Shown here piece after piece: positions 42,171 to 49,045 of a stretch of 64,000 nucleotides of DNA. A program made the position numbers and the translations under genes. Every line of letters begins with the position of its first letter. Position 1 is the first letter of the stretch. A model generated the notes under the pieces. It was not told the origin of the DNA. It made no database searches and worked only from the letters and a program-made list of their open reading frames with translations. Origin of the DNA: Eledone cirrhosa (lineage: Eukaryota); assembly GCA_964016885.1 (NCBI GenBank), contig OZ024746.1, positions 53,568,001 through 53,632,000 of the forward strand, given 5' to 3'.

Positions 42171-42360
42171 TTAATCTGTTCTTTTAATAAATAAATAAAT
42201 ATATATATATATATATATATGAAAAGTGTAATTTTCTACACAAAACGAAGGTTATAGAGAAAATTGAGGTTGGTAATGGCACATGGAATATATAAGAGAC
42301 AGAATACTTTTTTGTGAAAAAACATAATTTTATAAGGTAAGGAAATAATAAAGGGTATAA

Positions 42361-42408
42361 AAAATGACCGGTTTCGATGGGTCTGCAAAAGCCATCTTTT
42401 CAAATGTT
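42361..42408 (-). ncRNA. Type I hammerhead, U3-A8 variant (inverted arm)
   Basis: Inverted copy of 48580-48627. Confidence 0.6.
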
Positions 42409-42758
42409 GATTAATATTAAGAAAAATTAATAATACGAAGAGTTAAAATTTGAGACTTGAAAATTCAAGTATAAAATTCATTGTGGGATTTCATAGCAGT
42501 TTTCATCTAGGTAGCAACAACAGGTTGACTGCTGTGTCCCTTTCTGGTAGTGAATGAGAAGTTATTTGGGGTGTGGGTTATTTTATAAAGGTCAGATTTA
42601 GCAATCGCCAGCTGCTGGTCAGTGAGGGGGTGGAAGCAATATACACACACATATATCTTCCTGTGATGGGTAGGAGAGTGGAGCGTGATAGAAAAGGATT
42701 TAGTGCACTTACACCTATATATACACACATACCTTCATCCACACATACATACATATAC

Positions 42759-42803
<45 letters not shown>

Positions 42804-42872
42804 CACACATACATACACACACACATACATATACATACACACATACACACACACACACATATATATACACAT

Positions 42873-42927
<55 letters not shown>

Positions 42928-43458
42928 TATATATACATACACATACATCCAGATACACACATACATACACACACACACACACACATATATATACACACAT
43001 ACACACACATATATATACACACACACACACACACATGCATATATATATATATATACACATACGCATACATCCAGATACCCACATACATACACACACACAC
43101 ACACACACACGCACACACAATACATACATCCACATGCACACACATACTCACACACACACACACACACATACATACACCCACACACAGAGAAATGGCCTTC
43201 AAATATATATATATATATATACATATAGACACATATATTTTTTCCATAATATAAGAAGTTGGGGCAGTGAAATTAAAATAATTCTGTGTGCGCATATATA
43301 TATAGATATATGTGTGTGCACGTGCAGGGTTTAACATGGATGTGTTGGTCACACAAAGGCATGGTCTGTCAATGAATAAACCTGATTCTACAGAATTGGT
43401 CTCTGGTCTTTAATAGTAGTGATTCCGTGCGTATGTGTGTTTATATTTTATGACAATT

Positions 43459-44365
43459 CTATTGGGGTGATAACCCGTTTAGTTTTGGTTTAAATTTGTT
43501 AAGGAATAGATTTTCTTTGTTTATTCTTTGTTGTTGTGTGAACGAATCTGAGCACTTGTAGAAGGGGAAGATTTTAAAGTTGGGTAGTGTCATTCCTGCG
43601 CAGTTCGCAATATGGCTGCTCAAGGGGATTTTTCTTGTGTTAGCGTCCCGGATTTGTTGGCGGTGGATGGTCATTCTTTTGCGTAATGAGGTGCCCGTCT
43701 GTCCTATGTAGTTGTGTTTGCACCCACCGCAAGTTATTGCGTAAATCAAGTTCTCCGAGTTGCAGGTGAAATTGTTTTTTACTGTAAATGTTTGGCCATC
43801 TTTGAATGTAAATGTTTGTCCTTCAGTGAGGTAGAGGCACGTTCCACAGTTTGTTCTACCACATTTGGTAACTGTAGGGTTGAGGATTGGTTTGGGTATA
43901 TTTGGTCCAGTGAGAATGCGTTTAAGTGATTTGGGTTGTCTTTTACTTTTAAGGATCTTGTGTGTTTCAAGAATAGACTTCATTTTTACATCTTTAAGTA
44001 GGATGGGGAGGTTTTTGTGTAGGTGATCAAACATTTCGGTATTTCTGGGGTTGAAAGTGGATACATATGGCAGGGTGTTGAGTGTGGTTTTCTGTTTTGG
44101 ATTGTTAAGTTGATGGGGATTTAGGTGTTTTGCCCTGTCTATTCCATTGTTGATTATTTCAAGTGGAAAGGCTCTTAAGATAAGGGTGTCTTTTAGTTCC
44201 TTTAGTCTTTGCTCCCGTTTAGGTGGATCTGATACTATGGTACATATACGTTTGGCCAAATTGTAAGGAATGTTAAGTTTTGTATGTTTTGGGTGACTTG
44301 ATGTGAAAAAGAGGTATTGCTTGGAATCTGTGGGTTTATAGAATATATCTGTATCTAATTTCCCG
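43459..44365 (-). pseudogene. Inverted duplicate of the RT thumb + GIY-YIG portion
   Basis: Translation from GKLDTDIFYKPTD to KLNGLSPQ is identical to the C-terminus of 45384-47531. Confidence 0.9.
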
Positions 44366-45337
44366 ATAGTTTTACCACGTAAATTCCAAATAAAGCATAT
44401 TACAAACGAACCTGAACCAGAAAGAAAACTCCGTGAACAAATGTCACTCAACAGGATAAACATGGAAATAGAACTCCTAAAATTAAGGGCCACCTCAAAC
44501 GAGCAAGAGTATAAGGATACTGATAAAAATATGGAGGAAGAATGCACTAAAAAGGCCGAGGGAACAACCCTACAAAATTTAATCAAATCGTGGAAACAGG
44601 ACTGCGAGAATGCAGAAACTATTTCCCTTAAACGGTGGGAAAAATCCGAAAACTGGTTCCTCAAATATGAAGAAGACTTTAAAAGGACGCACCAAACAGG
44701 TAACCCCTTTATAAAGCATTTGAACATAACAAGAACTACAACAGACACATTTACACCACCAAACCCAACACACACTAACCACAGGCACATCCCCCACCAA
44801 CACAAACCAAATACGGCCAACTAAACCAAAAGAAACACACCCAACCACCACAACACAGGTTTCCGTAGAAATGCCCCCTACATAAACCAACGACGAAATA
44901 ACATAGATCCAACTCACAACACACACACCACATTCCTCAGAAGAAATCCACCCAGGCCACTTGAAATCACAACAGAACTTACCCACAACCACACCAGACA
45001 TCACCCTCAATCCAACAAAAGACAACCCCCCAGCCTCAACACTCTGTACCACAGAAATAACGCACCCAGACCACATGTACCAACAACAGAACCCTTGCTC
45101 ATCAACAACCACAACACATACCACCCCCACCATCACATTCACCCTCATGAAACAACAAGCTACAGACCCACACGCAACAGACCAACAAAATATAATCACA
45201 CACAAAACTACATTCCTTTTTTAGGGAAAAGCCTGAAATACCAGGATACTCGATGGCCCCCCCCCTCAGGAGAAACCAAAAATAATCAACCTCTCAAAGA
45301 CACCTCTAACCAACACACAAATCAACATTTTAAGTAA
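44363..45337 (+). pseudogene. 5'-truncated PLE ORF1: helical/coiled-coil domain plus H/N/P/T-rich tail, with one in-frame stop
   Basis: One frame reads PIVLPRKFQIKH..EIELLKLRA..WKQDCE..RWEKSENWF.. from 44363 to 45337, with only TAA at 44822. It joins the listed ORFs 44441 and 45095. Confidence 0.7.
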
Positions 45338-47531
45338 GGGCCTGAAATTTACACCTACACCACGTAAACCAAACTTCCCCGAAATGAAGGATGACATCAT
45401 GGAATACTGCCGAAAGCTGCGACTAACGGAATTCTTCCACAACGACACCAACACTGAAGACGAATCACTGGTTAGAAATAAAAGCAATTTCTGCCCACAA
45501 AAGGGAAGAAATAAAGCACTGGACACGTACTGCGAACACATCACCAACTTTCCCTATGAAAAAATTACAAATAAACACACGAAATCAAACCTATCTACAC
45601 ACGAATGGGAAGAATTATTCACACTTAGAAACAACCCTGAGATAACTATCAAAGAAGCCGATAAAGGCAGTACTGTTGTGATTATGAATACGGACTACTA
45701 TAGGACCCTCGCACTTAACATTTTAGAAAACAACACATACTATGAAAAAACAGAAAACTACAAACACACCAAAACAATGGGGAACCTTTTGACCTTACTG
45801 AATAAATACTGCAACAGCTTAACCACAAAAGAGTTTAACTATATAAGCCACTTCAAATGCAATACAAGCTCTTTTTACGGCTTACCGAAACTTCACAAAT
45901 GTAAACCCATAAACGATGCATGTGACACCTCAACCAACAATTACATTGAACTAACACCACCAGAAGACCTAAAACTCAGGCCAATTATAGCAGGCCCTAC
46001 ATGTGAAACCCACAGACTTAGCAACTTTCTGGACATCCTACTGAAACCCTTTCTACAACATATACAGAGCTACATACGAGATGACCTTGACATGCTGAAA
46101 CACCTCCCTAAAACAGTAAGTGCAAATACAATTCTTGTCTCCTTTGACGTAATAAACCTCTACACAAACATACCTCACAACTATGGAATAACAGCAGTCC
46201 AATACTGGCTTAACACACACCCATCAGAAATACCGACACGCATCAACACAGATTTTATCACTGACGGACTCCGCTTTATCCTACAAAATAACTACTTCAC
46301 ATTCAATGGTTCAACATACAGACAAGTATCAGGTACGGCAATGGGCACGAAAGTAGCACCCACATATGCCAACCTAGTCATGGGATTCCATGAACAACAA
46401 ATATACAGTCAGTCCCTTCTCTTATTTGGAGACTCTTTCCACACACACCTCAAAGCCAATTGGAAAAGATATCTAGACGACTGCTTTATCCTATGGCAAG
46501 AAGACATGAACTCACTTACTACGTTTAAAAACATGATAAACAACATAGATAATAACATACAATTCACAATGGAATCCAATCCTAAGGAATTAGCCTTCTT
46601 GGATATTCTCATCTCTGTAATAGACGGGAAATTAGATACAGATATATTCTATAAACCCACAGATTCCAAGCAATACCTCTTTTTCACATCAAGTCACCCA
46701 AAACATACAAAACTTAACATTCCTTACAATTTGGCCAAACGTATATGTACCATAGTATCAGATCCACCTAAACGGGAGCAAAGACTAAAGGAACTAAAAG
46801 ACACCCTTATCTTAAGAGCCTTTCCACTTGAAATAATCAACAATGGAATAGACAGGGCAAAACACCTAAATCCCCATCAACTTAACAATCCAAAACAGAA
46901 AACCACACTCAACACCCTGCCATATGTATCCACTTTCAACCCCAGAAATACCGAAATGTTTGATCACCTACACAAAAACCTCCCCATCCTACTTAAAGAT
47001 GTAAAAATGAAGTCTATTCTTGAAACACACAAGATCCTTAAAAGTAAAAGACAACCCAAATCACTTAAACGCATTCTCACTGGACCAAATATACCCAAAC
47101 CAATCCTCAACCCTACAGTTACCAAATGTGGTAGAACAAACTGTGGAACGTGCCTCTACCTCACTGAAGGACAAACATTTACATTCAAAGATGGCCAAAC
47201 ATTTACAGTAAAAAACAATTTCACCTGCAACTCGGAGAACTTGATTTACGCAATAACTTGCGGTGGGTGCAAACACAACTACATAGGACAGACGGGCACC
47301 TCATTACGCAAAAGAATGACCATCCACCGCCAACAAATCCGGGACGCTAACACAAGAAAAATCCCCTTGAGCAGCCATATTGCGAACTGCGCAGGAATGA
47401 CACTACCCAACTTTAAAATCTTCCCCTTCTACAAGTGCTCAGATTCGTTCACACAACAACAAAGAATAAACAAAGAAAATCTATTCCTTAACAAATTTAA
47501 ACCAAAACTAAACGGGTTATCACCCCAATAG
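45237..47531 (+). CDS. PLE reverse transcriptase + GIY-YIG endonuclease
   Basis: Motifs IINLS..LSKGLKFTPTP (upstream of the first ATG at 45384), ADKG, FYGLPKLHK, LRPII, SFDVINLYTNI, GTAMG, RYLDD, FLD, FYKPTD..SSHP, CGRTNCGTC linker, NLIY..CGGC..YIGQT..H..H. Confidence 0.97.
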   Translation, partial: NTRILDGPPPQEKPKIINLSKTPLTNTQINILSKGLKFTPTPRKPNFPEMKDDIMEYCRKLRLTEFFHNDTNTEDESLVRNKSNFCPQKGRNKALDTYCEHITNFPYEKITNKHTKSNLSTHEWEELFTLRNNPEITIKEADKGSTVVIMNTDYYRTLALNILENNTYYEKTENYKHTKTMGNLLTLLNKYCNSLTTKEFNYISHFKCNTSSFYGLPKLHKCKPINDACDTSTNNYIELTPPEDLKLRPIIAGPTCETHRLSNFLDILLKPFLQHIQSYIRDDLDMLKHLPKTVSANTILVSFDVINLYTNIPHNYGITAVQYWLNTHPSEIPTRINTDFITDGLRFILQNNYFTFNGSTYRQVSGTAMGTKVAPTYANLVMGFHEQQIYSQSLLLFGDSFHTHLKANWKRYLDDCFILWQEDMNSLTTFKNMINNIDNNIQFTMESNPKELAFLDILISVIDGKLDTDIFYKPTDSKQYLFFTSSHPKHTKLNIPYNLAKRICTIVSDPPKREQRLKELKDTLILRAFPLEIINNGIDRAKHLNPHQLNNPKQKTTLNTLPYVSTFNPRNTEMFDHLHKNLPILLKDVKMKSILETHKILKSKRQPKSLKRILTGPNIPKPILNPTVTKCGRTNCGTCLYLTEGQTFTFKDGQTFTVKNNFTCNSENLIYAITCGGCKHNYIGQTGTSLRKRMTIHRQQIRDANTRKIPLSSHIANCAGMTLPNFKIFPFYKCSDSFTQQQRINKENLFLNKFKPKLNGLSPQ

Positions 47532-48060
47532 AATTGTCATAAAATATAAACACACATACGCACGGAATCACTACTATTAAAGACCAGAGACCAATTCTGT
47601 AGAATCAGGTTTATTCATTGACAGACCATGCCTTTGTGTGACCAACACATCCATGTTAAACCCTGCACGTGCACACACATATATCTATATATATATGCGC
47701 ACACAGAATTATTTTAATTTCACTGCCCCAACTTCTTATATTATGGAAAAAATATATGTGTCTGTATGTATATATATATATATATATTTGAAGGCCATTT
47801 CTCTGTGTGTGGGTGTATGTATGTGTGTGTGTGTGTGTGTGAGTATGTGTGTGCATGTGGATGTATGTATTGTGTGTGCGTGTGTGTGTGTGTGTGTATG
47901 TATGTGGGTATCTGGATGTATGCGTATGTGTATATATATATATATATATGCATGTGTGTGTGTGTGTGTGTATATATATGTGTGTGTATGTGTGTATATA
48001 TATGTGTGTGTGTGTGTGTGTATGTATGTGTGTATCTGGATGTATGTGTATGTATATATA

Positions 48061-48117
<57 letters not shown>

Positions 48118-48186
48118 ATGTGTATATATATGTGTGTGTGTGTGTATGTGTGTATGTATATGTATGTGTGTGTGTATGTATGTGTG

Positions 48187-48229
<43 letters not shown>

Positions 48230-48579
48230 GTATATGTATGTATGTGTGGATGAAGGTATGTGTGTATATATAGGTGTAAGTGCACTAAATCCTTTTCTAT
48301 CACGCTCCACTCTCCTACCCATCACAGGAAGATATATGTGTGTGTATATTGCTTCCACCCCCTCACTGACCAGCAGCTGGCGATTGCTAAATCTGACCTT
48401 TATAAAATAACCCACACCCCAAATAACTTCTCATTCACTACCAGAAAGGGACACAGCAGTCAACCTGTTGTTGCTACCTAGATGAAAACTGCTATGAAAT
48501 CCCACAATGAATTTTATACTTGAATTTTCAAGTCTCAAATTTTAACTCTTCGTATTATTAATTTTTCTTAATATTAATC

Positions 48580-48627
48580 AACATTTGAAAAGATGGCTTT
48601 TGCAGACCCATCGAAACCGGTCATTTT
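48580..48627 (+). ncRNA. Type I hammerhead, U3-A8 variant, in the PLE 3' UTR
   Basis: aacat-TTGAAAA-gatgg..ccatc-GAAA-ccgg-TC-atttt. Confidence 0.6.
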
Positions 48628-48721
48628 TTATACCCTTTATTTCCTTACCTTATAAAATTATGTTTTTTCACAAAAAAGTATTCTGTCTCTTATATATTCC
48701 ATGTGCCATTACCAACCTCAA

Positions 48722-49045
<324 letters not shown>

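Follow-up and report, generated by a model that had tools for sequence, protein, structure and literature searches.

In HIV-1, the gag-pol heptamer U UUU UUA yields the product of a structural open reading frame (ORF) in excess over an enzyme fusion, and the -1 frameshifts of long terminal repeat (LTR) retrotransposons operate alike. Penelope-like elements (PLEs) that carry a GIY-YIG endonuclease (EN+ PLEs) are, in their canonical form, described as having a single ORF (Craig et al. 2021, PMC8557442), and the legend of Fig. 1 in the same paper lists PLEs with “ORF1 separated by a frameshift with a pseudoknot”, their clades unnamed and Neptune possibly included. A killifish Neptune has a short, unexplained ORF1, frameshifting being unmentioned in the excerpts available (PMC12602865), and an esterase ORF1p is noted in Penelope-like elements in PMC3905857, in whose excerpted text the word “frameshift” occurs zero times. 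We analysed a stretch of 64,000 nucleotides from Eledone cirrhosa (GenBank assembly GCA_964016885.1, contig OZ024746.1, positions 53,568,001 to 53,632,000, forward strand; hereafter the window), which holds a 5'-truncated, damaged member of a young EN-bearing, Neptune-like Penelope element family. The frameshift of the legend quoted above we take to be that of Athena. In the window family, as judged from sequence, programmed -1 ribosomal frameshifting very probably joins a first gene, ORF1, to the gene for reverse transcriptase and endonuclease (RT-EN), giving an ORF1-RT-EN fusion.

Two overlapping frames and a phased heptamer

The heptamer TTTTTTA lies at 45217-45223 of the window (forward strand), where it encodes Phe-Leu of ORF1, and its reading as T TTT TTA, in X XXY YYZ phase with the frame 44363-45337, is seen directly in the sequence, just as an earlier note on this DNA had reported; so are the TAA at 44822, the run of nine C (C9) at 45257-45265 and the -1-frame stop at 45283 that the note listed. 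The host genome (3.0 Gb) contains the window family (family A) and two further families, B and C; when more were sought in it with distant queries, the same families only were returned. A census of the C run covered 100 listed junction matches out of at least 103 exact matches in the genome: 84 have the C7 length, one is C10, eight are C8 (with fused frames), and seven, the window included, show the window phase. RT-EN is in the -1 frame of ORF1 in 85 of the 100 (the 84 C7 copies and the C10 copy). The earlier note had proposed that one more C would repair the register of the window; the natural C10 copy (L044) reads as predicted, but the common family form is C7, of equal phase. Among the 30 best loci the -1 frame extends beyond the ORF1 stop in 26, and in 21 of these 26 it stays open to the end of the locus; 14 larger stretches gave an ORF1 frame of 427 codons (421 aa from its ATG) in 11 cases and an RT-EN frame of 775-779 codons in 12. 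The RT-EN frame of family A opens eight codons 5' of the heptamer, which is intact in 94 of 100 listed family matches (of 180), while a phased TTTTTT(A/G) occurs nowhere among the remaining 384 ORF1 and 751 RT codons checked in one intact copy. Conservation of the heptamer is beyond chance.

Slippage at U UUU UUA, where the 421-aa ORF1 overlaps the RT-EN gene in the -1 frame, would lead to the ORF1-RT-EN fusion, tRNA-Phe and tRNA-Leu presumably re-pairing from UUU-UUA to UUU-UUU. Most ribosomes would terminate 19 codons past the heptamer and release ORF1 alone, and the outcome would be a gag-pol-like surplus of ORF1 over the enzyme. Several copies (L092, L093, L094, L233) carry natural in-frame ORF1-RT-EN fusions of ~1,160-1,180 codons, produced by expansion of the C run. 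These fused copies are scattered over several subfamily backgrounds without any private variant in common. The fused form has therefore not spread, and the copies look like repeated homopolymer slips that founded no lineage.

Beyond family A the heptamer is kept in the same position. The RTs of families B and C are 56% and 57% identical to that of family A (range 54-57%), and both families hold T TTT TTA G in the same phase, with no RT-frame ATG before IN(L)S/GLKF. We also considered 87 loci from metagenome and genome collections (the 80 best of 366, plus seven), among which L142/L144 and L138/L143 form related pairs. All seven outside loci with an ORF1 profile match upstream of the RT carry a phased TTTTTTA or TTTTTTG, as do three in which ORF1 is cut by the contig end, and none of these ten has an ATG before IN(L/M)S. 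Eleven elements other than family A (families B and C and nine outside elements) are all without an in-frame ATG after the heptamer, and the phased heptamer is kept across elements with an RT identity of only ~30-60%. In L194, which is related to L137, the run is one T shorter, and we read this copy as decayed. No relative was found in the viral contigs searched. In an RT tree, 11 elements with the ORF1 family of family A fall on one branch (SH-aLRT 99; L143 excluded, rows unnamed), a grouping that speaks for this ORF1 family forming one clade and does not show that the frameshift arose once. The two-ORF architecture with its -1 overlap and phased heptamer, as the earlier note described it, is seen in families A, B and C and in 10 loci from other samples; the heptamer and its phase are conserved in these homologues, and neither a single continuous consensus ORF nor another phase relation was found.

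The same pattern can be followed in proteins. The ORF1 core is matched by 510 representative proteins (best 150 inspected), and from these homologues we used a set of 82 of at least 330 aa, with a median nearest-neighbour identity of 42%. Phe-Leu (FL) occurs within the last 40 aa in 68 of the 82, compared with 4-8 of 82 in four upstream windows, and none of the 68 has K, E, Q, M or W immediately before it (0/68; background 27%). The first T of the heptamer is thus recovered from protein alone, since the residue before FL always has a codon able to end in T. In a search up to length 1315, the best 120 homologues of the RT measure 641-803 aa, and no ORF1 fusion is among them.

Family A itself has a start codon that could bypass the heptamer. 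In the family phase, the ATG at 45253-45256 (forward strand) is in the RT frame and overlaps the ORF1 Trp codon TGG (45254-45256); it lies 10 codons 5' of IINLS, and in family A and its older subfamily an in-frame ATG stands 12 codons after the heptamer. The earlier note held that the RT needs an upstream entry: in the window the first RT-frame ATG, at 45384, is indeed 3' of IINLS (45282) and of GLKF, but because ATG 45253 is in the RT frame of the family and 5' of IINLS, family A taken alone does not require such an entry. RT-EN might therefore be translated separately from this ATG, by reinitiation after ORF1 termination ~30 nt downstream or by internal initiation, with the heptamer a mere relic; the retrotransposon SART1 provides a precedent for reinitiation (PMC10275272), and five close RT homologues are called by gene callers from a Met just before KPKIINLS. 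We regard separate initiation as very unlikely. Family B has GTG in place of the ATG in 40/40 rows (34 distinct loci), 37 of them open to GLKF, with the ORF1 Trp retained; family C has no start codon at the equivalent place (8/8), and 9/9 outside elements have no ATG before IN(L/M)S. The ATG is confined to the subclade of family A and looks like a side product of conserved ORF1 Arg/Lys-Trp codons, and the heptamer is exactly preserved.

A second possibility is that TTTTTTAG acts as a 3' splice acceptor and that removal of an intron from ORF1 brings the RT in frame, PLEs being known to carry introns. The window site is a polypyrimidine tract followed by AG, and in 43 of 68 homologues the codon after FL could start with G (background 21%). 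Splicing nevertheless appears highly improbable as the explanation: AG is absent at 4 of 14 junctions (L137, L146, L148, L217), the residue after FL is unable to begin with G in the other 25 of 68 homologues, and an acceptor would need no fixed ORF1 phase, no exact six T and no fixed distance to the ORF1 stop. No GT-AG joint was seen among the 15 of 61 joints shown, from contigs of three runs of unknown kind, a result that is uninformative on splicing. Transcriptional slippage is a third possibility, because the conserved feature is a homopolymer and one extra U in the T6 run would give the identical fusion. It is hardly credible, however: six T are short for polymerase slippage, the fixed codon phase and the codon-counted stop distance indicate translation, and T7 copies, which would be retrotransposed, number zero among the 100 listed.

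Some observations do weigh against frameshifting, namely the RT-frame ATG before IINLS in family A and the gene calls from Met in the five close homologues, the absence of the terminal FL in 14 of the 82 ORF1 homologues, and the partial overlap between the protein set and the DNA loci. In addition, no conserved hairpin or pseudoknot was found downstream by minimum-free-energy folding and a simple pseudoknot scan of 14 junctions, and efficiency could be low. Frameshifting remains the best reading despite the ATG of family A because 11 other elements without it keep the heptamer in phase.

Stop-codon spacing and a candidate stimulus for frameshifting

A canonical eukaryotic signal for programmed -1 frameshifting combines a heptamer of the form X XXY YYZ, conserved and in phase where two ORFs overlap, with a stem-loop or pseudoknot 5-9 nt downstream. 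The former is present here; the latter was not found. Fold z-scores at the 14 junctions range from -2.3 to +1.2, with one below -2 (L139, -2.3). The family A junction (z +0.68) folds no better than its shuffles and shows no H-type pseudoknot by simple scan, and the folds of family C and of the distant element L180, both with a spacing of 10 codons between heptamer and ORF1 stop, amount to -0.8 and 0.0 kcal/mol.

This spacing is the surprising part of the analysis. Counted from the Leu codon to the stop in the 68 homologues with FL, it is below 10 codons in none, exactly 10 in 25, and up to 38 in the remainder; other common dipeptides, taken as controls, give no 10-codon peak. The ten residues between Leu and stop have a mean of 0.95 identities. 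At the DNA level the spacings in 12 elements are 19, 20, 10, 10, 12, 17, 10, 12, 10, 10, 20 and 19 codons. Codon +11 after TTA, the stop position in many relatives, is occupied by Trp in family A, family B and three close homologues; its codon, TGG, differs from a stop by one base. In an ORF1 tree made by a quick method (69 rows), the 10-codon label is clustered, with 9 changes needed and at least 5 forced.

A spacing of 10 is also found in two distant PLEs outside the clade, L197 and L180, the RTs of which are 25-27% identical. L197 has T TTT TTA with a stop 10 codons on, at the end of a 632-codon ORF1 (L197:2569-4497) whose last segment is SGNH-esterase-like by eye (GDS, GxND, DxxH) and which has no Pfam match. 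L180 is an endonuclease-less PLE with A AAA AAC at L180:1215 and a 10-codon spacer to TAAC; its overlap holds telomere-like CCCTAA/CCCAAA repeats beside the heptamer. A further group of distant PLE-like RTs (L171, L176, L177, L191, L193, L195, L202-L204, L209, L216) has upstream ORFs of up to ~800 codons. Most of them have a -1 overlap of ~200 codons and do not follow the 10-codon rule, and several show A AAA AAC near the opening of the -1 frame.

In E. coli reporters, a ribosome stalled at a stop codon raises the -1 slippage of the trailing ribosome about two-fold at 8-10 codons (PMC6815119), and a 10-codon gap is the minimal collision spacing in eukaryotes, where disomes accumulate at stop codons (bioRxiv 10.1101/2023.02.01.526718). 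Because the spacing of 10 matches both the eukaryotic collision gap and the stop-stall slippage in E. coli, we propose collision with a terminating ribosome as a tentative candidate for the frameshift stimulus across the clade. With one ribosome terminating 10 codons downstream, the ribosome behind it would be halted with UUA in its A site, and there it would slip; in family A, a Trp-Pro-Pro pause at +11 or a second queued ribosome would replace the stop. These elements may then exemplify, again tentatively, a structure-free class of PLE -1 frameshift, stimulated by another ribosome as it terminates exactly one ribosome length (10 codons) past the slippery site.

Frameshifting may also be real and the 10-codon spacing due to something else, such as a minimum length of the ORF1 tail, an effect of the Phe-Leu nascent peptide in the exit tunnel, or a stop position that frees RNA structure. 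We give such causes nearly an even chance and hold them equally likely with collision. Spacings of 12-40 codons are tolerated in many families and hairpins exist in single families (L139, z -2.3); furthermore, coronavirus frameshifting is modulated by stop position through refolding, as proposed for SARS-CoV-2 (PMC8168617). On the other hand, the ten intervening residues are unconserved, family C and L180 keep 10 codons with essentially no fold, and 10 equals the measured collision gap (bioRxiv 10.1101/2023.02.01.526718).

Collision has difficulties of its own. Longer spacings occur in 43 of the 68 homologues, including family A (19) and family B (20), so that family A, with its stop at 19, is not a simple fit and may depend on a pause, on two queued ribosomes or on weak slippage with no stimulus. 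Trp at +11 is found in just 5 of 50 long-spacing proteins, four of which share a D-T/V-x-W motif. With proteins of at least 200 aa included, the spacing is 10 in 29 of 85, but one has it at 6. Because proteins with the 10-codon label group together on the tree, the counts overstate independence, and the L180 heptamer may be a by-product of the adjacent telomere-like repeats.

Two further patterns were considered and set aside. A Pro/Trp pause at +10/+11 is weakly enriched in long-spacing families (P in 8/50 and W in 5/50 at +11), and a C at +4 after the stop, first seen in 5/5 ten-codon elements versus 0/7 others, was weakened by later elements (+4 A in L144 and L197, +4 C in L180) and is kept as a hint.

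The ORF1 protein and the window copy

The AlphaFold model of ORF1 is a bundle of long helices (pLDDT ~98 over residues 70-230) with a disordered basic tail. Foldseek gave no match with E <= 0.001, the Atlas yielded no usable match, VIA-align found generic helical bundles only (best Z 9.1, rmsd 6.4, 124 aligned), and ORF1 matches no Pfam family; a profile search for additional homologues added only two. ORF1 is probably a structural, RNA-binding protein and, by analogy, may serve in RNA packaging. The named members of its family are from Mytilus. PLE contigs L217-L223 and proteins P0171, P0187, P0217, P0219 and P0229 come from bacterial bins (Bacteroidota, Campylobacteraceae, SUP05, Solemya and Thiodiazotropha symbionts); PLE sequences in such bacterial or bivalve-symbiont bins are probably DNA of the host animals.

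The main body of the window copy (44363-48729, forward strand) is 98% identical to a natural full-length copy, L034, and its 5' end lies inside ORF1. Position 44363, which the earlier note took for the start of ORF1, is the junction with an inverted copy of the 3' end of the element (RT thumb, EN, and 3' untranslated region (UTR) with pseudo-LTR (pLTR)), which was placed by blastn to L034 at 42214-44365 on the reverse strand and terminates in (TA)n. The inverted arms, 42742-44365 and 46625-48248, are 97% identical, and a 3-nt microhomology, CCG, marks the junction of inverted arm and main body at 44363-44365. Because the inverted copy abuts there, the first 115 of the 421 ORF1 codons are absent; the remnant (44363-45285, forward strand) runs from residue 116 onward as a helical bundle, then a disordered tail rich in H, N, R, T and P. 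The TAA at 44822-44824 (forward strand) is a private nonsense codon: other copies, a check that the earlier note had advised, have the sense codon TAC in 74 of 75 rows spanning it (some loci counted twice). The family ORF1 stop is the TAA at 45283-45285, and the window frame continues to 45337 because the C run on the forward strand is C9 here, against C7 in most copies, which also disrupts the -1 register. The copy is thus broken three ways, by truncation, by the nonsense codon and by the two-base expansion of the C run.

The RT-EN ORF, counted from IINLS, occupies 45282-47531 (forward strand) and includes GLKF, DKG, YLDD (46470-46481), a CX4CX2C linker (47127-47153) and, from 47241, GIY-YIG with CCHH. 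The 3' pLTR passes into (CT)n and lacks its final ~40 nt. Pattern scanning found a minimal hammerhead-like motif in the pLTR at 48585-48622 (forward strand), with U3-A8 replacing C3-G8, a 5-bp stem II and a weak stem I, and a mirror motif in the inverted arm near 42366-42403; the same core variant was found by pattern scan in family B, and Rfam returned no hammerhead match on two full copies of the element. A long internal (TA)/(TG) microsatellite lies in the 3' UTR/pLTR (window 47650-48250, and the equivalent region of all copies); copied along with the element, it may have seeded microsatellites genome-wide. Summed contig depth in run X1 reaches ~70,000-117,000 over L034:2536-2807 (pLTR, window ~48490-48729), compared with ~650-1,500 over ORF1. 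This excess suggests that a non-autonomous element or solo pLTR with the same end is very abundant.

Relation to described elements and frameshift systems

The earlier note's identification of an endonuclease-bearing PLE is borne out by the translation of RT-EN, which contains the motifs GxKF (here GLKF), DKG and YLDD of a telomerase-related RT and, at its C terminus, a GIY-YIG domain with CCHH (LIY...CGGC...YIG...H...H). Pfam RVT_1 matches the RT with E 4.6e-7, and no PDB sequence matched it. PF01541 is found on homologues, for which the source gives the name “GIY-YIG nuclease”, and was not listed by the Pfam scan of the window protein. As in other EN+ PLEs, there are pLTRs and tandem or inverted 5'-truncated insertions; a single ORF is not found, as two overlapping ORFs stand in 85 of the 100 listed copies, but by its RT and EN the element remains a PLE. 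The Neptune linker, CX2-5CxxC, is present as CGRTNCGTC, though Nematis has this linker too, and the RT thumb is nearer to Neptune1_Ap than to Nematis, by eye only, when set against the rows of Fig. S7 (PMC8557442). By the excerpted criteria of Craig et al. 2021 (PMC8557442), the sequence features class the element as a Neptune/Nematis-type EN+ PLE. It does not agree with Athena and Coprina, which are endonuclease-less and have telomeric repeats at the 3' end, since an endonuclease is present and insertions occur at many places on many contigs.

Frameshifted ORF1s of PLEs are already in print (Craig et al. 2021, PMC8557442), and in an EN+ PLE the frameshift architecture probably extends what is known of PLE biology to a modest degree. 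The literature found describes no slippery site in an EN+ PLE, although the frameshift may already be on record in the Athena and Neptune papers, in Repbase or in Fig. 1 of Craig et al.; neither a 10-codon spacing nor a natural stop-collision frameshift was found described, collision-stimulated frameshifting being shown, in the literature found, on synthetic bacterial reporters only. For a large clade of endonuclease-bearing PLEs the single-ORF picture is corrected, and because 510 proteins match ORF1, yet no Pfam family covers it, in annotated “full-length” elements of the clade the first gene and the genuine beginning of the enzyme are probably missing. If collision is the stimulus, the amount of enzyme made would be governed by ribosome load and by the speed of termination, and the clade would offer a natural, selected test case for programmed reading-frame change by queuing behind a terminating eukaryotic ribosome. 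No earlier natural case in a eukaryote appears in the literature found, and this one would extend over lineages whose ORF1s are unrelated and which use two different heptamers.

With HIV-1 gag-pol the window family shares the heptamer U UUU UUA; unlike gag-pol, it shows neither a stable stem-loop nor a pseudoknot past the site, and its ORF1 is without a Gag knuckle. It resembles Neptune and Nematis, as excerpted from Craig et al. 2021 (PMC8557442), in the C-terminal GIY-YIG with CCHH, the CX2-5CxxC linker, GxKF and DKG, and also in the pLTR with a putative hammerhead-like motif, the inverted 5'-truncated insertions and the (TA)n flanks; it departs from the canonical EN+ PLE of that paper in having a separate, helical ORF1 of 421 aa, in the 0 frame, before the RT. 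Like the PLEs for which Craig et al. 2021 mention a frameshift with a pseudoknot, it has an upstream, coiled-coil-rich ORF1 that would be joined to the RT by frameshifting; no pseudoknot was found in the window family, in which an endonuclease accompanies the putatively frameshift-joined ORF1. In its relatives with the 10-codon spacing, the arrangement is that of the engineered collision-stimulated -1 frameshifting of Smith et al. 2019 (PMC6815119), a slippery heptad placed one ribosome length before a stop and free of structure; theirs, in the excerpts available, are synthetic E. coli reporters with a peak at 9 codons, whereas the putative case described here is natural and eukaryotic, with a spacing of 10.

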